From: Longimicrobiales bacterium
GTDB taxonomy: Bacteria; Gemmatimonadota; Gemmatimonadetes; Longimicrobiales; Gaopeijiaceae
Length of the DNA: 64,000 nucleotides
Assembly: GCA_965226375.1 (NCBI GenBank)
Contig: CBDDCX010000008.1
Coordinates: 640,001 to 704,000 of the forward strand
Direction of reading: 5' to 3'
Every line of letters starts with the position of its first letter. Positions within the stretch are counted from its first letter, which is position 1. The position numbers and the translations under genes were made by a program. Positions 49,557 to 64,000 of the stretch are shown in pieces. The notes under the pieces are model-generated. The model was not told the DNA's origin. It did not search any database and was given only the letters and a program-made list of their open reading frames with translations.

Positions 49557-50345
49557 GTGTCGCCCAGCAAGAACAAGATACTCCTCATCGAGCGCCTGAA
49601 GACTCGAAAGGGTCGTCCCCGAGAGGGGCTCGTCCTGGTCGAGGGCGTGCGGTGCGTGAGGGAGGCGCTCGCCGCTGGGGTGCCGGTCCGATTCGTGATT
49701 CGGTCCCGGAGGCTGCTCCAAACGGAGCCCGGCCGGGCCCTCGCGGCCGCTGTCTCGGAGCGGGGAGGGCCCGTGGACGAGGTGGACGACGCCGACCTGG
49801 ATGGCATGGCGGACACCGAGCATCCACAGGGAGTTCTTCTCGTTTGTGAGGAACCGAAGTGGGAACTCACGGCCCCTCCCACTCCGTCCGGTGGCCCCAT
49901 CTTGCTTCTCGATGCGATCCAGGATCCCGGCAACCTCGGCACGCTCATCCGGGCAGCCAGAGCGTTTGGGGTCTCGACCGTAGTGGCGCTCGACGGGTCG
50001 GTGGATCCCTGGAACGCCAAAGCCGTGAGGGCTTCGGCCGGAGCCTGCTTCCATCTGGACGTAGTGCGGTCTCCGTGGGCCGCAGTGGGCCCCTGGCTTG
50101 AAGGCCGGAAGGTGCGGCTTCTGGCCGCCGATCCCGGCGGAGGCGATGTTAGCGAGACAGAGCCGACCGCCCCATGGGCGTTGGCAGTCGGGAACGAAGG
50201 GGCCGGGCTTCGACCCGAGATCGTGGCGGCGGCTCAGGCCAAAATCGCCATCCCGATGGGGTCGGGTGCGGACTCGTTGAACGCCGGAGTGGCGGGCTCG
50301 ATTCTGCTCTACGTCCTCACAACACACGGAAGTGACGCTCCTTGA
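49557..50345 (+). CDS. TrmH/SpoU-family RNA methyltransferase
   Basis: IQDPGNLGTLIR, VGNEGAGL, IPM...SLNAGVA. Confidence 0.93.
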   Translation: MSPSKNKILLIERLKTRKGRPREGLVLVEGVRCVREALAAGVPVRFVIRSRRLLQTEPGRALAAAVSERGGPVDEVDDADLDGMADTEHPQGVLLVCEEPKWELTAPPTPSGGPILLLDAIQDPGNLGTLIRAARAFGVSTVVALDGSVDPWNAKAVRASAGACFHLDVVRSPWAAVGPWLEGRKVRLLAADPGGGDVSETEPTAPWALAVGNEGAGLRPEIVAAAQAKIAIPMGSGADSLNAGVAGSILLYVLTTHGSDAP

Positions 50346-51133
50346 TCGACATCTTGATCGACCCTTTGATCGTCGCAGTGATCGCCGGGGCCTTCGGGCT
50401 CACCATCGGATCGTTCTTGAACGTGTGCACCCTGCGTTGGCCCCAGGACGAATCCGTCGTCTTCCCGGGCTCGCACTGCACATCCTGCGGTGCCGACATC
50501 CATTGGTACGACAACGTTCCGGTCCTGAGCTACCTGATCCTGAGGGGCCGTTGTCGCGCGTGTAAGGAGCCTTATTCCATCCAGTACCCGCTGGTAGAGT
50601 TCGCCACGGGACTCGTCTGGGCCGGGGTCTTCGCTTATGGAGGACTCTCGGGCGAAGCGTTCCGCGGGGCCGTCTTCCTGACCATGCTCTTCGGGATCTC
50701 TCTGAGTGACGCTCGTTTCTACATCATTCCGGATCAGTTTTCACTGGGGGGGTTGGTCGTCGGCCTCACCCTCTCGTTCGTTCCGGGTGGGCTGACGTGG
50801 GTTGAGGCTGTGGTGGGTGCCGTAGTCGGCTTCGCCGTTCTGAAAGGTGTCGCGATCGCGGGCAAGTGGATGTTCAAAAAGGACGCCATGGGCGGTGGCG
50901 ACGTGAAGATGATGGCGATGATTGGTGCGTTCCTGGGGTGGCAGGGGGTGCTCCTGACCATCTTCCTGGGGTCGCTTCTGGGCTCGGTGATCTTCGGGCC
51001 CATCTCGTATAAGACAGGTAACCTGGTGCCGTTCGGGATTTTCCTGGCGGCGGGTGCCGCGGTGACCTACGGCTGGGGGAATGACATCATCGAGTGGTAC
51101 GTGACTACGGTGCTGGAGATGCCGGCGCGGTAG
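50342..51133 (+). CDS. pilD: Prepilin peptidase
   Basis: GSFLNV, SHCTSC...CRAC, MGGGDVKM, VPFGIFL. Confidence 0.93.
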   Translation: MIDILIDPLIVAVIAGAFGLTIGSFLNVCTLRWPQDESVVFPGSHCTSCGADIHWYDNVPVLSYLILRGRCRACKEPYSIQYPLVEFATGLVWAGVFAYGGLSGEAFRGAVFLTMLFGISLSDARFYIIPDQFSLGGLVVGLTLSFVPGGLTWVEAVVGAVVGFAVLKGVAIAGKWMFKKDAMGGGDVKMMAMIGAFLGWQGVLLTIFLGSLLGSVIFGPISYKTGNLVPFGIFLAAGAAVTYGWGNDIIEWYVTTVLEMPAR

Positions 51134-51161
51134 GGGATGCGCCAGCCACGGACCTGACGGT

Positions 51162-53066
51162 CTAGTTGCCCACTCGCTCCTTCAACTCCTCGAACCAGTT
51201 CACCACAACGACAATTTCCGGGGCGACGACGGCGTTGTCCCCCACGGCCTGCTCCACCACCGCTCGCCCCGAGACCGGGTTCACATCCCATCCCGGGAGC
51301 AGACGCGGGAGCACGGCAACCACCTCGGGCGAGCTGCCCGCCGGTTGACCCGGTGCCATCGCAACAGCGAAGAGCGTGTCCCGTGACAGGCTCCAGTAGT
51401 ACACGGTCTGACCGTCGGGCGCCCAGCGGGGGGAGAGACCACCGGCTGCGGAGACGAGGCGCACTTCCCGCGCGTCGGGAAAGCTGCGTACGTAGATCTG
51501 CGGCCGGCCGGCTTCGTGAGACTCGTAAGCCGCAAGAGTCCCGTCTGGTGATACCGAGAGGTCCGTTTCGGTCCACTCAGCCGCCAGGTAGGGAGTGACG
51601 CGTTCCGGGTTGTTCGGGTTGACGATCAGAATATCCTGCGCGCCGGCCGCGTTTATCACGATGATGTCCTCGGATGGCCAGGCCAGCGCATGGTCATCAC
51701 TGGGAAGATTGAGGAGTCGGGTCGGCGGCGAGCTGCCATCGACAGGCGTGATGAAAAGGTCTTCCGCGATGGTGCCCGCCTGCTCCGAGGAGAACACCAT
51801 TCGGGTTCCGTCCGGAGACCAGGCCGCGGCGTGAGCGCCGCCGCCAAACGTAATCGGCGTCGTCGTTCCCGTGGCGAGGTCGTACGTAAAGACTGTCCGC
51901 TGCTCGATCCGGCCGGCCCCCGTGTTGAACGCGAGCCGCTCACCGTCTGGGGAAAACCGTGGCCAGTTGAAGACCCGGGGCGACAAGGGGATCGTGTCCA
52001 TGCCGCCACTCATTTCCAGCAGGAGGAGTTGTGACGCCTGTCCAACGTCCAGCGGGTTTGTGGCGTAGACTAGGGTACCCGTCCGGGAGATCGAATAGAA
52101 GGCGTTGTTTCCGACCAGATCTACGTCGTCCCTGACTGGAGCGGGACGTGCGCGTCTGCCCCAGCGGTCACACGCCATGACGGGCCGCCCTACGGTGCCG
52201 CTGCCGTTCCAGCGTGTATGGTCTGCCACGTGAAGGCCGGGTTCGTCAGGGCCTCCGCGAACCTCGCGGCGCTTTCGAACCGATCTGCAGGGAGCTTCTC
52301 CAGGGCTTTGCGTAGCGCGGCGTCGACATGCGGTGGGACCGCAGGCCGTTCTTCCGTGGCCGACACCGGTTTGCTAGAGATGATCTTGCCCAGCACCGCT
52401 TGAGCTGTCGCACCGGGATACGGTGGCTCGCCCACCAGCATCTCATACAGGACCGAACCTAAGGCATAGGTGTCGGTGGACGATCCCACGAACTGATCGC
52501 CCGTGGCTTGCTCCGGGCTCATGTAGAACGGAGTACCCAAGCTGAGGCCGGTCTCCGTCAGACGACCTCCACCAGCCGCACCTACGGCGAGCGCGATGCC
52601 GAAGTCTGCGATCAAGGGTCGCCCTCGTGCATCAGGATGTTGGCGGGCTTGATGTCTCGGTGGATCACCTTGTTGCGATGAGCGTAGTCGAGCGCCTCGG
52701 CCAGGTCGGTGGTGATCTTGACCGCCTCCTCCACGGGGAGCTGATGCTCACGGTCGAGTCTGTCCCTTAACGACTCGCCTTCTACGTAGGGCATCACGTA
52801 GAAGAGGAAGGCGTCAACCTCGCCCGAATCGAAGAGGGGGAGGATGTGGGGATGCTGCAGGTTGGCGGTGACCTTGATCTCGGCGAGGAAGCGCTCGGCA
52901 CCGACTACCGCGGCCAGTCGGGCTTGAGGACTTTGAGGGCGACCTTGCGCTCGTGCTTGAGGTCGTCGGCCAGGTAGACCGTGGCCATGCCGCCTTCGCC
53001 GAGTTCACGCTCGATGGTGTAGCGGCCGGCGAGGGCTGCGTTCAGGCGGGCGACGGGATCGGACAT
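51162..53066 (-). pseudogene. Ser/Thr kinase-TolB propeller gene relic K1 (two frameshifts, an in-frame stop, internal deletion)
   Basis: MSDPVARLNAALAGRY...GEGGMATVY, HRDIKPAN, DFG, GTPFYMSPEQ; shifts near 52919 and 52620, TAG at 52192-52190; C-terminal PRFSPDG repeats ending VNWFEELKERVGN. Confidence 0.92.
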
Positions 53067-53072
53067 GCGGGC

Positions 53073-53102
53073 AAGATGCTGCTAGGGTGTGAACACCCAC
53101 AA
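53073..53102 (-). promoter_or_regulatory. Putative leaderless promoter TTGTGG-N18-CATCTT-N6-ATG
   Basis: Same spacing recurs at 56268-56297, 57568-57597 and 58959-58988. Confidence 0.65.
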
Positions 53103-53355
53103 GGCGGACAGGCTATACATGGGTTGTCCCATACAGCCATGGACGGATTCTGAGCCCCACGATTGGGGACGGTCGGAACAGGCTCGAAACTCCGGTGTCG
53201 GTGTCCCTGGCTGACCCCAGGACGCGCCCGGAGCAGGGGGTCGGACATCTCCTCGTGACCCCGCCTCAGCCCTCACAAGGCCTCCTGATAGGTCTCGAAA
53301 CACCCTCTTATATTTCATGTAACTTGTTGTCATTGTTAGATATGAGGGGGTTTCG

Positions 53356-55149
53356 ATGCGTCCCGCCAAGATCGCACTTCCTGAGGTATCCCACCTTCCT
53401 TCAGATGCCGCCGAGCGGCTCATCCAGCGTTCCGATGGCGAGCCCGAGCGTTCCGATGTCTCACCCGAGCGTGCCGATGTCTCAGCCCAGCGTGCCGATT
53501 GCGCACCCCAGCCGTCCGATGGTGCGCCCGATCAACACCGCGTCCCGACGCCCGGCGGGCCCAATCTCGCCACTTCCGTCTGTGTCGCGTCCGGTGCCGG
53601 GGCGTTGGGCCGGACCACATGCCTGTGTGAGGCCTGCCGGGCTGCCGCGGCAGCGGACGACTCGTTCGAGGTCCTCACCGAACTCGCCGATGAGATCACC
53701 ACCCTCGCAGCGAACATCCACGCGGCCGAATACCGGTTCATCACCCTGATTGCCGAGTTCGACCGGCTCGAGGGCTGGCAGCCTGAGGGCCACCGATCCT
53801 GCGCACACTGGCTCGCTTTTTATACAGGCATCCACCTGGGTGCAGCTCGCGAAAGGGTACGTGCCGCACGAGCCTTGGTGGGCCTCCCGCATATCAGCGC
53901 GTCGATGGAGAAGGGCGAGCTGTCCTTCGCCAAGGTGCGGGCGCTCACGCGTGTCGCCACGCCCGAGAGTGAAGGCGAGCTGATCGAGCTCGCCCGCGAC
54001 AGCACCGCGGCTCAGCTAGAGCGGACCGTCAGGGCTTGGCGTCGACTCAGCCGGTACGACGAGGCGGAGCTGGAGAGGATGCGGCATCGTTCTCGCTACC
54101 TCTCGGTCCTTCCCGACGAGGAGGGCATGTACCTCGTGCGCGGCCGGCTGGATCCTGAGGTGGGGGCGATGCTCATGCGAGCGCTCGAGGCCGCGGGCGA
54201 CGCTCTCTTTCGAAAGGAAACGGCCGAAGAGATCGAGCCTATGCACCGGCGAGCGGATGCCATGGGGCTCCTGGCCGAGCGCGCGCTGGCGGTGGGGTTC
54301 GGAGACGGGGCAGGGGCGGCAGGTGAGGAAGCGGAGGCTGCGGAGGCAGCGAAGGCAGTGGAGGATGTGGAGGATGTGGAGGATGTGGAGCCGGCGGAGG
54401 CAGCGGAGGATGTGGAGCCGGAGGCGGCGGATCGGGAGGAGGCGCGCCCCACCCCACTCTCCGGCAGCCGAGCCGAGCGCTATCAGGTGGTCCTGTACGT
54501 CGATCCTCCCACGCTCGAACGTGAGAAGCACACGAGGAGAGAAGGTGGTCCAAGAGGAAGCGGGCCAGGAGAACGCAGTCCAGGAAATAACAGCGAGCCG
54601 GGACGTTCGGAGCTGGAGGACGGCACACGCGTTTCCGCGGAAACGTCTCGGAGGCTCTCGTGCGATGCTAGTGTGGTCCGGATCACTGAGGCCCCGGACT
54701 TGTCAGCGCCTCGAGGAAGGCGGGTGCTCGATGTCGACGCCCCTCACGGAAGGGGGGTGCCCGACGTCGCCGCCCCCCACGGAAGACGGGTGCCCGACGT
54801 CGCCTCCCCTCACGGAAGGCGGGTGCTCGACGTCGGCCGGAAGGCGCGTACGATCCCGCCTTCGCTCAGACGGGCGCTCGAGTCCCGGGACCGCGGATGT
54901 CGCTTCCCGGGCTGTGGCCTGCGCTTCACCGACGCCCATCACATCGAGCACTGGGCGGACGGCGGCGAAACCAAGCTGCGGAACCTCGTTCTGCTGTGCC
55001 GATTCCATCACCGCCTGGTACACGAGGAGGGCTACACAGTCCATTTCCCTCACGGGGAGCGGTTCTACTTTCTCAATCCGAGGATGAGGTTGATCCCGGA
55101 TCGGCCACCGGCGACCGGTCCGGCATCTCCCGGACTCTCTCCTTGGTAG
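53356..55149 (+). CDS. DUF222 / HNH endonuclease (REP13E12-like) with tandem-repeat inserts
   Basis: SCAHWL, GELSFAKVRALTRVATP, RRADA, RRLSCDA, RDRGCRFPGC...DAHHIEHWADGGET...NLVLLCRFHH. Confidence 0.9.
   Translation: MRPAKIALPEVSHLPSDAAERLIQRSDGEPERSDVSPERADVSAQRADCAPQPSDGAPDQHRVPTPGGPNLATSVCVASGAGALGRTTCLCEACRAAAAADDSFEVLTELADEITTLAANIHAAEYRFITLIAEFDRLEGWQPEGHRSCAHWLAFYTGIHLGAARERVRAARALVGLPHISASMEKGELSFAKVRALTRVATPESEGELIELARDSTAAQLERTVRAWRRLSRYDEAELERMRHRSRYLSVLPDEEGMYLVRGRLDPEVGAMLMRALEAAGDALFRKETAEEIEPMHRRADAMGLLAERALAVGFGDGAGAAGEEAEAAEAAKAVEDVEDVEDVEPAEAAEDVEPEAADREEARPTPLSGSRAERYQVVLYVDPPTLEREKHTRREGGPRGSGPGERSPGNNSEPGRSELEDGTRVSAETSRRLSCDASVVRITEAPDLSAPRGRRVLDVDAPHGRGVPDVAAPHGRRVPDVASPHGRRVLDVGRKARTIPPSLRRALESRDRGCRFPGCGLRFTDAHHIEHWADGGETKLRNLVLLCRFHHRLVHEEGYTVHFPHGERFYFLNPRMRLIPDRPPATGPASPGLSPW
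53425..53529 (+). repeat. Five degenerate 21-bp coding tandem repeats (xRSDVSP)
   Basis: Units such as GAGCGTTCCGATGTCTCACCC. Confidence 0.85.
54697..54834 (+). repeat. Four degenerate 33-bp coding tandem repeats (DVxxPHGRRVx)
   Basis: Units start at 54697, 54730, 54763 and 54796. Confidence 0.88.
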
Positions 55150-55171
55150 TCACGCGATCCACCACTTGTCG

Positions 55172-55732
55172 CTAAGAGCGAGCCCGGTCACGAGCCACGG
55201 CCCATTGCTCTCCGAGATCCAACTCTCCGACCCATCTCTCGATGCTGTCGATGTCCAAGGCGCTCCCCTGCACCCTCAGGATCTCAACTACATCTCTGAT
55301 CTGGCGATCCGAGTCGCTCAGCTTGGCCCACTCGAGCTTGGCCACGACCATGTCCTCAGCTCGTGCGATGGCGAGGTCCAAGCCTATGAACGTGATGGTC
55401 TGCCGAGCGTCGAACTCTTGGCGGCTAAAGTCCCTCTCCCTGCGTAGGATGAAGTCGATCTTCCAGCCTGACGCCGGGTCGATCGCGTTGAAGAGGCCCC
55501 GAGATACAACGGCCTCGTGTATCGCGGTCTCACTGACATACAGACCTTCGGCCTCCAGCTTCCCCGCCAACCGTATCAGAGCAGGGGCCTCGGCCTCGAC
55601 CACGAGGTCAACGTCTTGTGTGGCCCGAGGGGCTCCGTGGAAGGAACTGGCGAGGGACCCCGTGAGCATGTACGGAATCCCGATCTCATCGAGGGACCCG
55701 ACCACCAGACCCAAAAGCTGCTCGAGCTTCAA
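55172..55732 (-). CDS. Nucleotidyltransferase-fold protein (putative toxin, AbiEii/DUF6036-like)
   Basis: YMLTGSLASSFHGAPRATQDVDLVV (GS...DxD), KIDF, EDMVVAKLEW. Confidence 0.8.
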   Translation of the reverse strand: MKLEQLLGLVVGSLDEIGIPYMLTGSLASSFHGAPRATQDVDLVVEAEAPALIRLAGKLEAEGLYVSETAIHEAVVSRGLFNAIDPASGWKIDFILRRERDFSRQEFDARQTITFIGLDLAIARAEDMVVAKLEWAKLSDSDRQIRDVVEILRVQGSALDIDSIERWVGELDLGEQWAVARDRARS

Positions 55733-55944
55733 CGGTCCCCAGACCCACGGGAGGTTGAGGAATCCGGCGCGGGAGTCTCCTCGGCGTCGTTCGACCCTGC
55801 GGCGCGCGCGGCGGCCCCGGCGGCGCTGAAGTCAGCCACGAACTGACTGAGGTCCAGGGCTTGTTGGAGCCGTTCGGCACCGCTCAACCCAGCTAGAGCA
55901 TTGCGTCGGGCTTCAGCGGCGTCACGCGTCGTATCGAGAGTCAT
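55729..55944 (-). CDS. Small helical partner of the nucleotidyltransferase (putative antitoxin)
   Basis: MTLDTTRDAAEARR...SGAERLQQALDLS; 4-nt overlap with the NTase gene. Confidence 0.65.
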   Translation of the reverse strand: MTLDTTRDAAEARRNALAGLSGAERLQQALDLSQFVADFSAAGAAARAAGSNDAEETPAPDSSTSRGSGDR

Positions 55945-55999
55945 GATTCAATCTATACGCCAGCTACCAACGGGGAATCTTGGTCACTCGGACGCGCCC

Positions 56000-56261
56000 C
56001 TAATTTCCCTCTCCCAACGCCGCGCGAAGCTCGGTGAACCAGTTCGTCACGATCAGGTGCGGTGGTCTCGATCTCGGCCAGGAATGGCTCAGCGCCTACA
56101 ACCGCCGCCAACTCGGGCTTCAGGACCTTGAGGGCGACGTTGCGGTTGTGCTTGAGGTCCTTGGCGAGAAAGACGGTGGCCATGCCGCCTTCGCCCAACT
56201 CGCGTACGATGGCGTAGCGGCCTTCAAGGGCCGCGTTCAGGCGGGTGGCTGGGTCGGACAT
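56000..56261 (-). pseudogene. Kinase-TolB relic K2: first ~58 codons joined out of frame to the last ~19 codons
   Basis: MSDPATRLNAALEGRY...FLAEIETTA, then LIVTNWFTELRAALGEGN* in another frame; junction ~56055-56060. Confidence 0.9.
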
Positions 56262-56551
56262 GCCGGGAAAATGGGCCGTGCATAGGTCAGGTGACAAGCG
56301 TGACGGCTTCCGGTCGTACTTATCCCTCGCGGGATTCCAGGGAGTAGCCCTGACATGTGGATGCCTAGAGGGGCCTGAGACGTATGGGCCTCCCCGCTCC
56401 CCTTCGGCGCTTGGAGAGCCGCCAGCGGTTGGGCCGATCTGGGATTGGAGCAGCAGGCGGACCCGGCCTAGGAGGCTTTCAGACGCCGGTGGAGACGGGC
56501 TAGCGGCCGTGATGCGGTTTCCGCTCTTCCTCGGGTATCATTTCTGGCTCG

Positions 56552-56580
56552 TAGACATCATGATGTACTGATGCTATGAT
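56552..56580 (+). promoter_or_regulatory. vapBC promoter/operator
   Basis: TAGACA-N17-TATGAT 5 nt before the ATG; perfect palindrome ACATCATGATGT at 56555-56566. Confidence 0.7.
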
Positions 56581-56585
56581 GCGTC

Positions 56586-56810
56586 ATGCGAACCACCCTG
56601 AATCTGGACGACGAATTGCTGCGCGCCGTGCGCTCCCTCGCCAAGGAGCGGGACGAAAGCCTCGGAGCCGTTGTTTCGTCGCTTCTCCGCCAGGCCCTCA
56701 GGCCCGAACGCGAGTTGGGCTACGAGCAGGATGTGCCGGTCTTCATGGTGAGGGAGAACGCGCCGCCGATCACCCCGGAAATGGTGGAGCAGGCGCTGGA
56801 GGATCTCTGA
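56586..56810 (+). CDS. vapB: VapB-type antitoxin (RHH/CopG-like)
   Basis: MRTTLNLDDELL...SLGAVVSSLLRQAL, directly before a PIN gene. Confidence 0.88.
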   Translation: MRTTLNLDDELLRAVRSLAKERDESLGAVVSSLLRQALRPERELGYEQDVPVFMVRENAPPITPEMVEQALEDL

Positions 56811-57235
56811 CAGCCCTCTTGGACGTCAACGTGCTCGTGGCATTGGCCTGGCCGAACCACATTCACCACCGCCGTGCCGTTGCCTGGTTCGTTTCGGTCC
56901 GATCCGAAGGTTGGGCCACATGCCCCACCACCGAGTCCGGATTCGTCCGGGTGTCCTCGAATACACGTGCGATCCCCGATGCGCGCACGCCGAGCGAAGC
57001 GATTGGGCTCCTGACGCAGCTCAAGGGGTCAGGACAGCATCACTTCTGGGAGGACCCGGTAACGCTCACATCAGACCCCTTCGGCGTCTTCGCTCGCGTG
57101 GTGGGGCACCGGCAGGTGACGGATGCGCACCTGCTCACGCTCGCGCTCCATCACTGCGGATGCTTCGCGACATTCGATCGGGGGCTACAGGAGTTGGCGG
57201 GATCTCACCGGGAGAGTGTGGTGCTGATCGGCTGA
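56807..57235 (+). CDS. vapC: VapC PIN-domain toxin, probable CTG start
   Basis: ALLDVNVLVAL, TESGFVR, QVTDAHLL, ATFD; CTGA overlap with the vapB stop. Confidence 0.9.
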   Translation: MTALLDVNVLVALAWPNHIHHRRAVAWFVSVRSEGWATCPTTESGFVRVSSNTRAIPDARTPSEAIGLLTQLKGSGQHHFWEDPVTLTSDPFGVFARVVGHRQVTDAHLLTLALHHCGCFATFDRGLQELAGSHRESVVLIG

Positions 57236-57278
57236 CCAGTGGTCTTCGCGCAGCCCAGGCGGGTGACGAAATCAGACA

Positions 57279-57561
57279 TCAGTTCGGCACCAGGCGCTTC
57301 AACTCCTCAGAAAATTTGGTGACAACAATTAGCTGCTGTTGCTGGTCGCCGACATCCTGTCGGACCATGAGGAACCGCCCGTCGAGGGCTACGTCGTAGG
57401 ATTGATCGCCTGCTGGGTGGGTGACGAAGTCTCCCTCGAAGAGCATTTCCGGGCGCCCAACGGAAAAGGCGCCTTCGGTCGTCACCTCGACTGCCGAGCT
57501 CGCGCTCGATGGTGTAGCGGCCGGAAAGGGCGGCGTTCAGGCGGGTGACGGGATCGGACCT
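57279..57561 (-). pseudogene. Kinase-TolB relic K3: ATG->AGG, ~23 N-terminal codons joined to the last ~72 codons
   Basis: SDPVTRLNAALSGRYTIERELG, then AVEVTTEGAFSVGRPEMLF...YDVALDGRFLMV...EELKRLVPN*; shared GGC at 57493-57495. Confidence 0.88.
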
Positions 57562-57683
57562 GGCCGCAAGATGCGGCTAGGGTGTGTTATGCCACAAGGA
57601 AGGCCCGGAGTGGTGATGCCATGCGTTGAAGCGCCGTCCGCCGTAAGACGCCTATTAGTCGGTAACCCGGACCGACGGTTCTC

Positions 57684-58904
57684 TCACCCGTCGCCCCCGT
57701 ACCAGATCCGGAAGATCCGCCCCCCCGCGTCGTCGGAGACCAGCAGTGATCCGTCCGCGGACTGAAGTACGTCGACCGGGCGACCCCACACCTCCTTGTC
57801 CTCCTCGTCGCTGACGATGAATCCGGTCAGAAAGTCCTCCGGGGGGCCGGTCGGCCGTCCATTCTCGAAGGGGATGCGCACGAGCGAATACCCTTTGAGA
57901 TCGAGGCGGTTGATGGACCCGTGCAGCGCCACGAACGCACTGTTTCGGTACGCTTCGGGAAACCGGTCGCCCGTGTAGAAGGCCAAGCCCATCGGAGCAG
58001 CGTGGGCGGGGAGGAGTACGTCGGGAACGATCGTCCGCTCGACCAGATCCATCCGCGCTCCGTTGAGGATCGGCTCGGGGTTTGGACCGATATAGGCATA
58101 CGGCCAGCCGTAGAAGCCGCCGTCCACGACCGAGGTGACGTAGTCGGGCGCGAGGTCGTCCCCGAGGTGGTCTCGCTCGTGCACTGCGGTCCACAGGGTT
58201 CCAGATCCCGGGTAAAGTGCCAAGGGCACTGGGTTACGCAGGCCTCCGGCGAACACCCGATGTCCCGATCCGTCCGCATTGTATTCGTTGATCGCGGCCC
58301 GCCGGGGGTCGGTGCCGGGCATGGCGTTCGTCGCGGAGCCGACCGCGACGTACATCTTTCGGCCGTCCGGGCCGAAGATCAGGTTGCGCGTCCAGTGGTT
58401 GAAGCCACGTGTCCTGGCTAGGTCGATGCCGAGGCGCTCGGCCGTGTCGGTATCGAGCGCGTCGCTGCTGACGGGGAGGTCGACGACGTGCTCGGGCGAT
58501 CCTTCCGCCCGCAGTTGACCCGGGACGTACTCGAAGCGCACGACGGCATCGTTGTTCCCGACGTACAGGTATCCGTCTCGGAACGCCAAGCCGAACGGTC
58601 GCTCCAGGTCCGTGGCGAATGTCTCGCGGAGGTCAGCTACGCCGTCGCCTTGTGCGTCTCGGAGGATCACGATCTCGCCGGAGCCGCTCGAGGCGACGAA
58701 GATGTCCCCGTTCGGGGCGAGCGCCATTCGGCGCGGGCTCGAAATCCCGTCGGCGAACACGTTCACCTCGAACCCTTCCGGAACGGACAACCGGACGCCG
58801 TCCGGCTGCTCGACAATCTGTGGAATGGCGCGGTTCCACGGGGTCTCGAAGGGCTCGGGCAGCTGCTGGGGGGCCAGGACCAACATCAACGCGATGGCAG
58901 ACAT
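57684..58904 (-). CDS. PQQ-dependent glucose/sorbosone dehydrogenase-family protein
   Basis: Short signal peptide; VPEGFEVNVFA, NHWTRNL, GLRNPV, ERDHLGD, FYGWPY, HAAPMGL, WGRPVDV. Confidence 0.9.
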   Translation of the reverse strand: MSAIALMLVLAPQQLPEPFETPWNRAIPQIVEQPDGVRLSVPEGFEVNVFADGISSPRRMALAPNGDIFVASSGSGEIVILRDAQGDGVADLRETFATDLERPFGLAFRDGYLYVGNNDAVVRFEYVPGQLRAEGSPEHVVDLPVSSDALDTDTAERLGIDLARTRGFNHWTRNLIFGPDGRKMYVAVGSATNAMPGTDPRRAAINEYNADGSGHRVFAGGLRNPVPLALYPGSGTLWTAVHERDHLGDDLAPDYVTSVVDGGFYGWPYAYIGPNPEPILNGARMDLVERTIVPDVLLPAHAAPMGLAFYTGDRFPEAYRNSAFVALHGSINRLDLKGYSLVRIPFENGRPTGPPEDFLTGFIVSDEEDKEVWGRPVDVLQSADGSLLVSDDAGGRIFRIWYGGDG

Positions 58905-59098
58905 GTGTCACGACTCCTCTCATGCCCCCCGCTGTTTCATCGGGAGGCCGCTGGCCGCAAAATGCGGCTAGGGTGCGCCCCCCCACAAGTCTGGTTCGCC
59001 ATTCCTGTGGCTGATGGACGCGCCTTGCCAGATATCGGTCTGGCCCCCGGCTTCCGTCGTCTGGCCCCGGGACGCCGAATCTCAGACGGGCCTATCGA

Positions 59099-60414
59099 TC
59101 ACTCCGCCTTCAGCGTCTCCAGCGGATCCGTTCTGGACGCCCTCACCGCGGGCACCCAGGAGGCGAGCACCGTCGTCCCCAGCAGGACCATGGCAGAAAC
59201 CCCAAGGGACACCGGATCCTGCGCGGTCACGCCGAACAGGAAACTCTCCAGAAGGCGACCCGCGCCCCAGGCGGCGAACCCTCCGACGCCAACCCCTAGT
59301 ACAGCCATTGTCAGGCCCCGGCGCACCACCTCGCGCTGGATACGGGCGCCTCCCGCACCTAGGGCCAGACGGATGCCGAGTTCTCGACGGCGCTCCCCGA
59401 CGGCGAAGAGGAGCGTGCCGTAGAGCCCGCCCGCGGCCAGAAGGAGCGCTATGACTCCGAACGCGGCGAGAGCGCCGAGCCGAACCGCCTCGTGGCTGAG
59501 GACTCGTCGACCCACTGCGTCATGAGCGCAACCTCCGGCACGGGCAACTCCGCTTCGACCGCCCAGACGGCTTCGCGAATCTGGCGCACCAGGCCCTCGG
59601 CATTGCCGGCGGTCCTCAGCCCGAACACGGCACGGTCGATGGGGAACGGCAATGCCTCCACCGGCATGTAGACTCCATTCTCGTGGGACTGGTCCAGGCC
59701 GTAGTACAGGGTGGGCTCGGCTACGCCCTGGATGAACCCGCTCACGCTTCCGTCCCCGAACTCCCTGCCCAGAGCCGCGTCGGCCGACCCGTGGATACGT
59801 ACGGCCAATTGTTCGCTGATCACTAGTGGTGTGGGCTCATTCGCAGCATCGAGCGAAGACCATCCGCTCCCGGCGACCAGCCGAGTCCCGTACGTCTCGA
59901 AGAATCCATCTGAGACCGGATGGACGGACGCCCGTACCATCTCGGTTTCCGCTTGGTGGAGTGCTACATCGGTGCTCCAACAGCACTGGTCTCCGCCGGT
60001 CCATTCGAAGGGCGCTTCGATTCCGTAGCTGACCGAGGTCACTCCCGGTATCAGCGCGAGGGAACGCTCGATGGCGTCCATTCGGCGTGAATAGTCCTCC
60101 GGGGTCTCGATTCCGGTGGGATTCAGTTGGAGGACCCATACATTTTCGGCTTCGAAACCCGAATCCTGGTTGGTGACTTCCATGAAGCTGCGCATGAGCA
60201 AGCCGGCGAGTGTCACCAATACCAGCGAGAGAGCCACTTCTCCGACGACCAGTCCGCCTCGGACCAGATTGAGTCCTCGTCCACTGGAACTCCTCGGACT
60301 CGCTTGGCGTAGCGTGTCGTTGATATCCCGACCGATACTTTTCAGCGCCGGGAGCAATCCGAACGCCAACGACGTGAGTGATGCGAGTGCGATGGCGAAC
60401 GCGGCCACGCGGCC
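59099..60414 (-). pseudogene. MacB/FtsX-type duplicated ABC permease, 5'-truncated and frameshifted near 59470
   Basis: AFGLLPAL, LVVGEVALSLVLV...LLMRSF, then RRELGIRLALGA...ASRTDPLETLKAE in a shifted frame. Confidence 0.88.
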
Positions 60415-60774
60415 GCGTTTCTTCGACAGGGCCTTCAGCGACCCGCTATGCGCCGCCTTGCGCCACGTCGTCAGGTGCGACGAGTACAGGCCCTCTCGCC
60501 GCAGGACTTGACCCACCTCGCCGGGCTCGGTGCACCGGTCCGCTTCTTCGACGATCCGCAGCTTGTACGACGGACTGAACCGCCGCCGTAGCGGCCTATC
60601 TACTACCTCCGGGTCCGCAGGAGCTGCCGCGCTTCGCTTGGCCTCCCCGGTTCCAGGGGCACTACCATTCTCTGCCATTCTCTCTCGCAGTCCCAAAATG
60701 TTCGTTTTCTCTGCCTTCGCCCTACTCTAATTCTTTGCGTGCTCCGTGTCTCACGTACGTTGGCAGAGAGGGGT
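60409..60774 (-). mobile_element. Left end of an IS3-like insertion sequence: terminal IR plus truncated orfA HTH
   Basis: DPEV...RRRFSPSYKLRIVEEADRCTEPGEVGQVLRREGLYSSHLTTWRK; end motif TGCCAACGTACGTGAGACA (minus strand, 60765-60747). Confidence 0.8.
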
Positions 60775-60775
60775 G

Positions 60776-60862
60776 AGCCTCAAAACCGCCTACCAGCAAG
60801 CAGACGCCGAGACTATGTTACGCGTCGTGTTGGAGGCGGGTGAACTCCGGGAAGTCCGTTGA
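60776..60862 (+). pseudogene. Probable C-terminal remnant of a tyrosine integrase
   Basis: SLKTAYQQADAETMLRVVLEAGELREVR*; resembles integrase tails by recall; lies next to a tRNA and tandem arm-like repeats. Confidence 0.55.
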
Positions 60863-60870
60863 CTAGGCCG

Positions 60871-60894
60871 AACGTGCACACCAACGTGCACACC
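60871..60894. repeat. Tandem 12-bp direct repeat AACGTGCACACC x2 (possible integrase arm-type sites)
   Basis: Exact tandem between the integrase remnant and tRNA-Thr. Confidence 0.7.
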
Positions 60895-60957
60895 CGCCCG
60901 TTCCGTCAAAACGGAAGAAGCCAGAAATGGCTTAGCAAAAGGAAGAAAGTACGTCTC

Positions 60958-61030
60958 GCTGGCGTAGCTCAGTTGGTAGAGCAGCTGCCTTGTAAGCAGC
61001 AGGTCATCGGTTCGAGTCCGATCGCCAGCT
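60958..61030 (+). tRNA. tRNA-Thr (anticodon UGU), CCA not encoded
   Basis: GCTGGCG/CGCCAGC acceptor stem, AGCTCAGTTGGTAGAGC D-arm, GCTGC-CTTGTAA-GCAGC anticodon arm, GGTTCGAGTCC. Confidence 0.97.
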
Positions 61031-61232
61031 TGTGGTAATGGATGATCCGGTAGGCGTTTAGCCGCTGCCGTGGATCCGTCCCGCGAGCCCCCCCAGAACA
61101 CATTGCATCCCGATTGCAGGGGCTTCTGCTTGCGCCTACTGGATCGCTCTCGGATGTTGACCGCAGTCTGATCCCGGAGTACGGGTCGTTGCTATGGCCC
61201 TGGGATTCATCTTTCGGACAGGGAGGTGAGAG

Positions 61233-61859
61233 ATGTCGCTCCGACGACATGCTCGTGCTCTCATGCTGCTCGGCCAACTGGCCGCCGTCCCACTCGCGGG
61301 CCAGGTGCGATCCTCGTCTTCCGTCGATTTGCCGGAACTTACGGCTACAACCGAGGCAATGGCGGCCAGGGTCGTAGACCTCACGCAGCAACTGCAACAA
61401 TTTTTGGAGTTGCGCAGGGAGATCGCTACGAGTCGCCCAATCCATCCAGGCGAGAAGGCCTCGGACGATGAGTTGGCGGCCCTCCGGGAGGCCTACGACA
61501 CCTGGCGGTCGCGACTTGTACGTGTCGCTGAACGCATCGCGGATGTACGAGAGCGCCTGTCGCAGGCCGAGGGTGAAATGTACGAACTCTCGGCGAGGCT
61601 CGGATCTACTACGGCTCGAGACGCAAAACAGCAGGAGTACGTGGACGCGCTCAGTGCGTACACTTCTGAGCTCCAACAGAGTGCGAGCGCCCTGCTTCTG
61701 GAATTGGATCTCGCAACCGGGGCCTCGACTCCCGCCGCCGATGCATCCTCTGCAGGAGCTGGGGCCATCTCGGATGAGCTGCAGGAAGCCCTCAAAGGCC
61801 TGATGGTAACAGCAGCCCAGCCGCCGTCCGGAGTAGGGGGGCCGGGCGGACGCCGTTGA
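61233..61859 (+). CDS. Hypothetical secreted coiled-coil protein
   Basis: GGAGGTG RBS, signal peptide ending PLAG, helical heptad-like composition. Confidence 0.7.
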   Translation: MSLRRHARALMLLGQLAAVPLAGQVRSSSSVDLPELTATTEAMAARVVDLTQQLQQFLELRREIATSRPIHPGEKASDDELAALREAYDTWRSRLVRVAERIADVRERLSQAEGEMYELSARLGSTTARDAKQQEYVDALSAYTSELQQSASALLLELDLATGASTPAADASSAGAGAISDELQEALKGLMVTAAQPPSGVGGPGGRR

Positions 61860-62076
61860 CCTCGCGGTGACCCGTCTAAGCTACGAGAGCTTTCTGGCCT
61901 ACCCTGGATGTCCCTGATGCGGTGTCGGGATATCCCAACCTTTGGCATCCCCAGTCCTCCATACCACTAGCTGGAGTCTGATAATCTCCGGGCCCCCAGA
62001 CGGCTTCTGCTTGCGCTTCCCGACCTGCGGATAGGATGTTGAGCGGGTCTGATCCTCCGATGCTGAGGAACGAGCT

Positions 62077-62142
62077 ATGTCCGATTCAGTCTCCCGCCTG
62101 AATGCCGCACTAGAAGGTCGCTACGCCAGGCGGCCAAACTGA
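62077..62142 (+). pseudogene. Kinase-TolB relic K4 (21-aa mini-ORF)
   Basis: MSDSVSRLNAALEGRYA-RRPN*, after a GAGGAA RBS. Confidence 0.8.
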
Positions 62143-62362
62143 GGACGAAGGAGCAGCGCATGAGACTCTCCAGCCAATGGGGCGTATCGGTCACTAATAC
62201 CCGTGCGGGGACCCGTTCACCAGAGGCGTTGGCGCATGGCTCCTAACCTCCGCGCCTCCTTGCCGCCCTGGGACGTGACACGCATAATCGATTACGCGAC
62301 GGCCCTTGGGCCATGAGGCCCTCCGCCTGCTTCGGCCGCCGCGTCAGGAGGAGGGTGAATTT

Positions 62363-62590
62363 ATGCCCACGGCGACCACGCGATTCACGAATGAGAAGGC
62401 CCCTTGCGGTCAGGTCGGAGACGGAGAGCGCTTCCGTGATTGGGACGACGAGTGCGTGCTCAGAGACGACTTGTTCTTCGACTGCGGCTGCCGGATTATC
62501 CGCCACGAGTATCACGACGGAAGCGTTTCCCGCAGTGTGGTCCGCCACGACGGTACAGTCCTGGAAGACGAGCTCATTGGCGCGCAATAA
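62363..62590 (+). CDS. Small Cys/His-rich hypothetical protein upstream of frdA/sdhA
   Basis: AGGAGGAGG RBS; APCG...CGC...HEYHDG...RHDG. Confidence 0.7.
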   Translation: MPTATTRFTNEKAPCGQVGDGERFRDWDDECVLRDDLFFDCGCRIIRHEYHDGSVSRSVVRHDGTVLEDELIGAQ

Positions 62591-62611
62591 GGCTCGATTC
62601 CGGGTCGCGTC

Positions 62612-64000
62612 GTGATCGCCTCTCATGACGTAGTACTGGTGGGGGGCGGCGGAGCGGGATTGCGAGCGGCCATCGCCATCGCGGAAACCAACCCAAACCT
62701 CAGCATCGCCGTCGTCTCCAAGGTTTATCCCATGCGCAGCCACACGGTGTCGGCGGAGGGGGGAGCTGCGGGGGTAGTGGCCGCGGACGACTCCCTCGAC
62801 GAGCACGCCTACGACACCATCTCCGGTGGCGATTGGATGTGCGATCAAGACGCCGTCGAAGCGTTCGTGAGAGAGGCGCCCGACGAGCTGCTCCGGTTGG
62901 AGCACTGGGGTTGTCCCTGGAGCCGCACGCCCGAGGGCACAGTTGCCGTGCGTCCGTTCGGCGGCATGAAGAACAAACGAACGTGGTACGCGGCCGACAA
63001 GACCGGCTTCCACATGCTCCACACGCTGTTCCAAACCTCACTCAAATACACGAGCGTCGTACGCTACGACGAGTGGTTCGTGACGAAGCTCCTGGTCGAT
63101 GATGGCCGGGTCCAAGGCGTCGTGGTGCTGGAGCTGATGTCTGGAAGGGTCGAGCCGATTCTGGCTAAGGCCGTCATTCTGTGCACGGGCGGGTGCGGCC
63201 GCGTGTTTCCGTTCACCACCAACGCGAGCATCAAGACCGGCGACGGCATGGCGTTGGCCTACACGGCCGGCGCCCCGCTAAAGGACATGGAGTTCGTCCA
63301 GTATCACCCGACGGGTCTCCCGTTCACCGGCATCCTGATCACCGAGGCCTCGCGGGCCGAGGGAGGCTGGCTGCTCAACAAAGACGGCTACCGCTACCTG
63401 CAGGACTACAACCTGGGCACACCGGAGCCGAAGCCGGTTCTAAAAAGCATGGAGTTGGGACCTCGGGACCGTCTGTCCCAAGCCTTCGTCAAAGAGGTGG
63501 AGAAGGGGCGGGCCGTCGACGGCCCCTACGGCGCGGTGGTCCACCTCGACCTGCGGCATTTGGGTAAGAAGGTCATCGACACGAAGATCCCGTTCGTGCG
63601 GGAGCTGTGTCGGAAATACCAGAATATCGATCCGGTCACGGAGTTGATTCCGGTGCGGCCGGTCATCCATTACATGATGGGGGGGGTCCACACCGACATC
63701 GAGGGTGCCACCCCTCTGGCCGGGCTGTACGCGGCCGGTGAGGTTGCGTGCGTGAACATCAACGGCGCAAACCGCCTGGGGTCCAACTCCCTGACGGAGC
63801 TGCTCGTGTTCGGCGCGCGCGCCGGCCGTGCAGCGGCGGAGTATGCGTCCACCCGGACAGATCCGAGCTCCATCCTTCTGGCGCAGGCAGAGGACGAAAA
63901 ACGGCGTTTGGAGCGTGACTTCCTGCACAAGACGGATGGCACGGAACGCTCCGCGACGATTCGCGAGGAGATGCAGGAGACCATGGAGCAGGCCGCGGGC
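62612..64000 (+). CDS. frdA: Fumarate reductase/succinate dehydrogenase flavoprotein (runs off the window end)
   Basis: [32 protein letters not shown] (FAD-His), [26 protein letters not shown]; open to the end. Confidence 0.9.

Follow-up and report, generated by a model that had tools for sequence, protein, structure and literature searches.

Truncated ends of a multicopy Ser/Thr kinase family as candidate anchors for the exchange of accessory genes in Longimicrobiales

Background

Integrons hold runs of small accessory genes, toxin-antitoxin (TA) modules among them, in cassettes that are closed by attC sites and joined at a fixed crossover point. Homology-facilitated illegitimate recombination combines one homologous anchor with a joint at microhomology, and the minimal mobile elements of Neisseria replace one another between conserved flanks. 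Here we compare with these and three further systems an array of broken Ser/Thr kinase genes that alternates with accessory genes (the cargo) over 11 kb of a Longimicrobiales chromosome. The array lies in a stretch of 64,000 nucleotides (nt), called the window, which is C8:640001-704000 of the source genome (G000, 4.23 Mb in 8 contigs); positions without a contig name refer to it.

In the T4-type phages RB49 and phi1, promoter-bearing repeats of about 100 bp flank accessory genes as PeSL cassettes, and homologous recombination between the repeats inserts, deletes and swaps genes without an integrase, as reported (PMC2839356). C-terminal displacement in rhs genes is recombination at the conserved part of a large paralogous gene, with arrays of fragments and uptake of foreign DNA (PMC2935791), and in the lpl cluster of S. 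aureus a conserved stretch within tandem paralogs is the crossover site, the moved unit spanning gene boundaries (PMC2568036). No description of such a system for a cellular gene family or for Gemmatimonadota was found in a literature search that covered few subscription papers. The main texts of two surveys of the phylum (PMC11316326, PMC10581226), as far as available, do not mention the kinase family, which their supplements could list.

We propose, with a probability of roughly 0.6, that a kinase/beta-propeller family of 40 copies left the relics as its surviving ends, through imprecise deletions and fusions that spared an upstream motif, and that these ends then became anchors for homologous swapping of cargo between loci and species.

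Results

Relics of the kinase family in the window

All four broken family copies that a first-pass annotation had located in the window (K1 to K4) were present where it had placed them. Each retains its 5' end and the motif upstream of it, as that annotation had said, with AGG instead of ATG at the start of K3, and K1 to K3 keep the last codons of the family as well. The proposed RRPN-stop tail of K4 is plausible; 107 of 39,802 open reading frames (ORFs) end in PN or GN. K2 and K3 are each a 5' stub fused to a 3' stub, in line with a deleted middle; for K1 that description fails. The last 984 nt of K1 share 90.5 and 87.5% identity with kinase copies in the congeners G002 and G001, respectively, whereas the 5' parts of those same copies match K1 at only 76 and 74%; K1 thus joins two paralogs and is not one gene with its middle cut out. 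The supposed GGC microhomology at the K3 junction, with its 3 nt, is at chance level. The upstream motif is of type A in K1 to K3 and of type B in K4, where motif and stub are 90% identical to a copy in G002 that leads into other cargo. A fifth stub, two motifs that stand without a stub, a tRNA-Thr gene and a stub after frdD outside the window (C8:705878) were absent from the first-pass annotation. The family elements of the window are:

51150..51161, minus strand: 12-nt scrap of a start of the Q family, a partner family often found 3' of the kinase stop codon
51162..53066, minus strand: K1, chimeric kinase relic; its 5' part, about 920 nt, has two -1 frameshifts, and from about 52146 on the final 984 nt belong to another paralog
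53070..53104, minus strand: motif A of K1 (TTGTGG, 18 nt, CATCTT, start codon 7 nt on), likely a leaderless promoter of sigma-70 type
56000..56261, minus strand: K2, 5' stub of about 200 nt and 3' stub of about 60 nt
56263..56300, minus strand: motif A of K2
57256..57279, minus strand: fifth 5' stub, about 24 nt, whose start overlaps the K3 stop (TGATG); relic of the next tandem copy
57279..57561, minus strand: K3, 5' stub of about 72 nt (start mutated to AGG) and 3' stub of about 215 nt
57562..57599, minus strand: motif A of K3
58953..58990, minus strand: motif A standing alone, with no kinase stub, 49 nt upstream of the dehydrogenase gene
61118..61182, plus strand: motif B without a kinase stub (TTGCGC, 17 nt, GATGTT, leader)
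61998..62065, plus strand: motif B of K4
62077..62142, plus strand: K4, 5' stub of 52 nt and the possible RRPN-stop tail

The family and its end bias

Intact family members have 868-897 amino acids (aa) and score above cut-off for both Pkinase (PF00069) and PD40 (PF07676), and under the cut-off of every named NCBIfam kinase. Their nearest kin are Gemmatimonadota, many of them Longimicrobiales. Across the phylum they often lie head to tail in TGATG-coupled tandem arrays, in a survey of 74 loci that were picked through an intact N-terminus and are biased to intact genes. Between paralogs, likeness at the DNA level is confined to the motif, the kinase domain and the final 50 nt or so. For the Q family, neither Pfam nor NCBIfam gave a hit.

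A profile of the first 75 nt, followed by manual curation, gave 45 family starts in G000, together with 22 ends. Ten starts are full length (4 intact, 6 frameshifted) and five belong to fused 5'+3' relics, three of these in the window. The relic with both ends, which the first-pass annotation had described in the window, is therefore in the minority, and the prevailing unit is a promoter-like motif followed by a 5' stub. Truncation is strongly biased to the start of the gene: 21 of 27 events break within 150 nt and none at 210-840 nt (p about 1e-21 when compared with the whole gene, 3e-14 when compared with just the kinase domain), on a hand-curated list that excludes 10 full-length copies, 1 copy at a contig end and 3 kinases with other C-termini and that collapses 2 duplicated units. 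The stub ends range from 20 to 209 nt. Copy number falls from 39 to 24 and 17 over the first three 75-nt segments, within a domain equally detectable throughout; at the 3' side the bias is less secure, because the propeller middle is not alike between paralogs in DNA, so that short pieces of it may have escaped the count. Among 2,518 genes of at least 200 aa, an excess of 5' copies was seen only for the kinase family and Q, setting aside insertion sequence (IS) overlaps and one 93-copy repeat. Clusters of elements lie within 5 kb of a tRNA gene in 8 of 32 cases, against 2.4 expected. The stubs show 0.16 non-synonymous changes per codon compared with 0.07 in intact genes at similar silent change, which indicates relaxed coding constraint, and most run into a stop or frameshift within 50 codons.

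The feature is real and lineage-wide, and in relatives it comes with different junctions and different cargo. In G071, where there were 40 family matches and 30 loci were read, 24 of the 30 truncated starts break off inside the first 150 nt. G011 (42 matches, 30 loci read) has mostly intact kinases, plus stub-cargo units and one 5'+3' fusion, and G002 has 20-kb runs of stubs and cargo in one orientation. A 29-nt stub pattern had 0 matches in viral contigs; the exact fused-relic pattern had 0 in metagenome contigs, which says little as the pattern is narrow.

Some observations stand apart from this census. Near kin of the kinase were also met on contigs labelled Alphaproteobacteria and Acidobacteriota (L191, L161), by transfer or binning error. 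In L092 (G011) a frame that starts as the kinase continues into ankyrin-like sequence, as judged by eye, and a short repeat with 93 matches overlaps an ORF start in the region of C8:1037381 of G000.

Crossover footprints and shared tracts

Crossover-like steps of identity are clear in two units. The ABM unit, made of a 5' stub, an ABM-family gene and a 3' stub, stands behind motif A in G002 and behind motif B in G071. Between the two genomes its identity is 45% in the promoter, 78% in the 5' part of the stub, 100% in the 3' part of the stub and 94% in the cargo, and then 88 and 62% across the 3' stub and 40% beyond, where core DNA of the pair is 80-82% identical. This is the pattern that would be expected of two crossovers, one in each kinase end. 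The stub-150 unit, a 150-nt stub with a small ORF, is found at 96% identity in G000, G002 and G071 behind a different promoter and a different 5' allele of the stub in each (steps of 37, 79, 100, 96 and 41%), and in G000 a 5-nt match with a further kinase 5' piece closes it. The switch of identity falls at different codons. The conserved ends, which had been suspected of serving as recombination anchors, do mark recombination tracts, in so far as identity switches inside stubs in these two units; no site-specific system is evident, because the breakpoints vary from 20 to 209 nt.

A third case begins in the window and runs beyond it:

62208..64000 (on to C8:705890), plus strand: start of the 3.68-kb frdABCD tract, which ends in a kinase start at C8:705878-705890

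This tract is 96% identical between G000 and G002 over 3,683 nt, compared with 79-80% for core DNA (one patch at 89%), and 5 of 31 genomes have frdABCD. On the right, the tract stops 13 nt inside a kinase-like start, in G000 as in G002; on the left, its edge is about 65 nt after K4 in G000 and just after a tRNA end in G002. frdABCD is therefore cargo recently shared with G002 and not a flank. The interval from pilD to frdA, which the first-pass annotation had proposed to align across strains, is not one conserved interval and spans two loci.

A scan for tracts shared between genomes, which covered 73-456 kb per relative, gave 215 matches and, from these, 39 low-copy rows. Six rows (ATP-synthase core) and ten (IS-like) were set aside and we grouped the rest into 17 tracts. 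Four of the 17 end in a kinase end, although kinase ends are about 2% of the compared DNA; as the genomes are kin and few, this enrichment is suggestive. Three of the four non-IS tracts with at least 95% identity and at least 400 nt end in kinase ends.

Variable sites in relatives

The array begins beside pilD, and the comparison of this site among relatives bore out the variability across strains that had been supposed. The site is empty in the two complete relatives G011 and G071, where pilD directly adjoins a gene that we take to be gamma-carbonic-anhydrase-like, and is filled differently in the three congeners. In G001 it has a 3' stub, VapBC and amidohydrolase-like genes, and in G002 VapBC, a TA pair and two fusions peculiar to that genome. 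VapBC, at 86-87% identity, is the only cargo there common to the three. Elsewhere, a 1.4-kb unit at C7:177.5 kb of G000 corresponds to an empty site in G001, G002 and G011, and the closest match to its Q gene adjoins tRNA-Thr in G002. For the genes behind elements in relatives, 27 of 34 rows, some of them kinase fragments, had no G000 match at 55% or more. Among the loci compared, no cargo was seen to follow an intact kinase in one genome and a stub in a different one.

One extra amino-acid permease gene stands behind a 60-nt stub and carries the last codons of the gene that lies upstream of the native copy; it is 80-81% identical to all native ones, and the native operon is intact elsewhere. 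From this structure it follows that cargo is cut out of a foreign operon just before the ribosome site and joined imprecisely. Since the permease brings the last codons of the native upstream gene, a tail of this kind does not set the kinase apart. The genes recA, comEC and rho are present; comEC is intact in G000, G002 and G011 and split in G001.

Promoter-like motifs and repeats

Motifs A and B precede kinase starts, and both also stand alone before cargo. Each consists of two conserved hexamers, between which lies a variable spacer of 17-18 nt, and reads as a putative promoter of the sigma-70 type, although neither was called by a promoter scan with the E. coli consensus. Terminator-like sites numbered 4 against 6 expected in shuffles, and one of them overlaps a single motif A copy. 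Motif B resembles a degenerate attC by eye only; the attC scans did not catch it and we rejected that identity. In a family of 474-aa genes the motif-stub junction is common to G000, G001 and G002 and the stub is worn down.

The 474-aa family itself looks secreted, has no Pfam hit and is often tandem (L194; in G000 at C6:200-205 kb, C7:4-10 kb and C8:299-302 kb); there are 13 copies in G000, 11 in G002 and 3 in G001, and none at that cut-off in 16 other genomes. At some loci kinase codons run in frame into lipoprotein-like signal peptides and provide new N-termini (L203:14918, plus strand; G000 C8:904615 and C7:609103); such in-frame fusions use only about 10 codons. A 50-nt repeat, R3, often lies directly after a kinase 3' end or a Q stub (in G000 at C7:598889-598938, C7:610191-610236 and C8:1926332-1926381, among others, and also in L203, L254 and L273). 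Within 3 mismatches it has 8 copies in G000, 10 in G002, 14 in G071 and 1 in G011, with none in the other 57 of the 61 family genomes searched. Its sequence is the same across genera, being identical in G000, G002 and G071, and it may be a leaderless promoter. Rfam (three loci) and plasmid searches gave no match to R3.

Cargo and joints of the window

The remaining features are:

50342..51133, plus strand: pilD prepilin peptidase (Pfam A24), core gene and left wall of the variable site
53356..55149, plus strand: DUF222-HNH gene (Pfam), divergent from K1
55172..55944, minus strand: pair of genes of 186 and 71 aa, no family hit, homolog in 5 of 19 genomes
56586..57235, plus strand: VapBC toxin-antitoxin pair (TIGR00028)
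57684..58904, minus strand: cargo of the glucose/sorbosone dehydrogenase family (Pfam GSDH)
59099..60408, minus strand: ADOP duplicated permease (TIGR03434), 3' part only
60409..60773, minus strand: IS end of 365 nt at the joint between two loci; 32 full copies in G000
60958..61030, plus strand: tRNA-Thr(TGT)
61233..61859, plus strand: 208-aa coiled-coil cargo gene, single copy

The cargo agrees in part with its first description. What was listed as a permease is limited to the 3' part of an ADOP permease, and an IS fragment is fused to it. Both genes of the supposed nucleotidyltransferase pair exist; they had no Pfam, NCBIfam or PADLOC hit, and we assume them to be nucleotidyltransferase-like from a motif, the source of the name. 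The dehydrogenase gene was not found in G001 or G002, and its orthologs in two other genera (80-81%) are without the upstream motif. The DUF222-HNH gene has one other copy in G000, 44 kb from the nearest family element, and was rejected on that account as a cutter aimed at kinase starts. It holds tandem repeats of 9 and 33 nt (54291-54434, 54694-54825), and a form shorter by 99 nt occurred in all four of the runs described below.

Breaks and joints were compared with contigs of four sequencing runs (X1, X2, X4 and X7), one of which may be the source sample, using the best 32 of about 8,300 pieces. An origin of the breaks in sequencing error was rejected: housekeeping ORFs found by motif are mostly full length in G000, which rules out general noise as the cause, and contigs of three runs share one of the K1 frameshifts. 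Contigs bridge the K2 junction in three of the four runs (X1, X2, X4), that of K3 in one (X7) and that of K4 in all four. No contig among these pieces bridges the K1 fusion point (about 52146), up to which X2 and X7 match before continuing for about 400 nt unlike the window, and contigs of all four runs depart from the window at or before the permease/IS joint and differ upstream of the permease. Spanning sequence, on which the first-pass annotation had let its case hang, thus confirms K2, K3 and K4 and not these two joints, which are either strain variants or misjoins.

The IS, presumably IS3-like, has copies in G001, G002 and G005 (another genus) that are 97-99% identical. One full copy in G000 (C8:1595746-1597312) lies directly against the gene found after pilD in relatives, which suggests a rearrangement linked to the IS. 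In G002 the pilD site and the tRNA-Thr site are about 1.5 Mb apart. As relatives run from pilD into the gamma-carbonic-anhydrase/ATP synthase region and tRNA-Thr lies elsewhere in G002, the 11-kb stretch is two loci joined at the IS end.

Discussion

How the array may have arisen

If the family ends are anchors for swapping, the process can be pictured as follows. Kinase DNA passes into cargo at variable points, most of them within its first 150 nt. Selection would preserve the promoter as well as the upstream gene's ribosome-binding tail, and short stubs might have an advantage, as long dead frames would exert polarity through Rho. A crossover of RecA type within a stub, of which we see the footprint, would move cargo behind any other family promoter, and at the far end either a further crossover, within a 3' stub, or a microhomology of a few bases would close the unit. 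The DNA may arrive by transformation from co-occurring relatives. No dedicated recombinase is needed, and the system is probably a by-product of the decay of the family.

Several results weigh against this proposal. The gene next to a short stub is co-oriented with it in 14 of 20 informative cases (70%), compared with 69% genome-wide; promoter donation is therefore not general, and we dropped co-orientation as support for promoter capture. Stubs are no closer to the neighbouring copy downstream than to other copies (mean quantile 0.42, n=8), so that local duplication making the two alike left no signal. Thirteen of the 17 shared tracts end elsewhere than in a kinase end. Perfect matches between stubs reach at most 16-38 nt and MutS is present, for which reasons crossovers should be rare. 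Finally, G000 fuses unrelated genes by deletion as well (the IS and the permease; a histidine-kinase-like gene and a sulfatase).

A rival history is one in which tandem arrays in IS-rich islands erode by deletion, their ends survive through promoters and ribosome sites, and crossovers in stubs are rare accidents without weight for gene content. The TGATG-coupled arrays common across the phylum, the 32 full IS copies, the six frameshifted full-length kinases and the many tracts that end elsewhere all fit it. Deletion alone, however, cannot place a junction with its cargo, 94-96% identical, behind three promoter alleles when core DNA is near 80%, and the long, highly similar tracts end mostly in kinase ends; we regard erosion alone as rather unlikely. 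An integron integrase or another recombinase acting on motifs, stubs or R3 is a much weaker candidate, and we hold it to be very improbable. An integron integrase does score above cut-off in three of four genomes, attC-like sites lie beside some arrays, and R3 is identical in three genomes; but breakpoints and crossover points vary, the integrase of G000 (C4:70218-71267, the sole hit above cut-off) lies on a contig without a family start, and the DUF222-HNH gene has no link to other loci. Simple pattern scans, which degenerate sites may escape, gave one full attC-like site and eight left-half matches in all of G000 and none in the window. That repeat collapse or chimeric bins made the fusions and shared units is the least credible explanation. 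The unmatched K1 fusion point and permease/IS joint would agree with it, but the other three relic junctions are bridged in other studies, other genomes have distinct fusions of their own, and the shared units are 94-96% and not 100% identical and lie inside megabase contigs. The swapping of cargo between family ends thus stays our preferred account. Its widest form, in which this lineage runs an integrase-free exchange network that uses kinase starts and ends, Q starts and R3 as shared joints, moves accessory genes (even the frd operon) ready-expressed between dozens of sites and species, and makes this a main route of gene turnover and not a set of scars, is more tentative, and we would put it somewhat short of even odds.

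Comparison with known systems

If the proposal is right, a decaying family of signalling genes has become a distributed cassette system without a recombinase of its own, which offers incoming genes a landing site and a promoter. It would give a testable rule for the entry points of accessory genes in these genomes, and such 'pseudogenes' need not be inert.

The system is not an integron. It shares with integrons the runs of small accessory genes, the TA modules and the neighbourhood of tRNA genes, but its crossover point varies, its units have no attC at their edges, the integrase is unlinked, and the promoter-like motif is the cargo's own or borrowed. Real attC arrays do adjoin some kinase loci in G002 and G011 and do not define the units. 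Such arrays, some with Q-like genes, were seen at L220, L221, L222 and L223, and at most one attC-like end lies near the G000 integrase. The stub-150 unit of G000, with a stub at one end and a 5-nt match at the other, resembles the products of homology-facilitated illegitimate recombination. In contrast to that process and to the Neisseria elements, the anchors here are multi-copy relics, so that one cargo can enter many sites.

The loci resemble rhs displacement and lpl shuffling and differ from them as follows. Rhs loci swap the tips of the same protein and leave 3' orphans, whereas the array described here destroys the kinase, consists mainly of 5' stubs and carries unrelated genes as cargo; the stubs do not show the rhs/polymorphic-toxin trait of a new C-terminus in frame on an intact N-terminal core. 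The lpl cluster shuffles only members of its own family, with neither foreign cargo nor stubs, both of which occur here. PeSL cassettes are closest, with genes swapped by a crossover inside the repeat, for which the Longimicrobiales loci offer a sequence footprint in two clear units. Unlike the PeSL repeat, the repeat here is the start (and end) of protein-coding paralogs in about 30 loci of a bacterial chromosome, the unit has no terminator stem-loop, and exchange is between species. With the phage precedent known, what would be new here is recombination-driven cassette shuffling based on a cellular kinase family.

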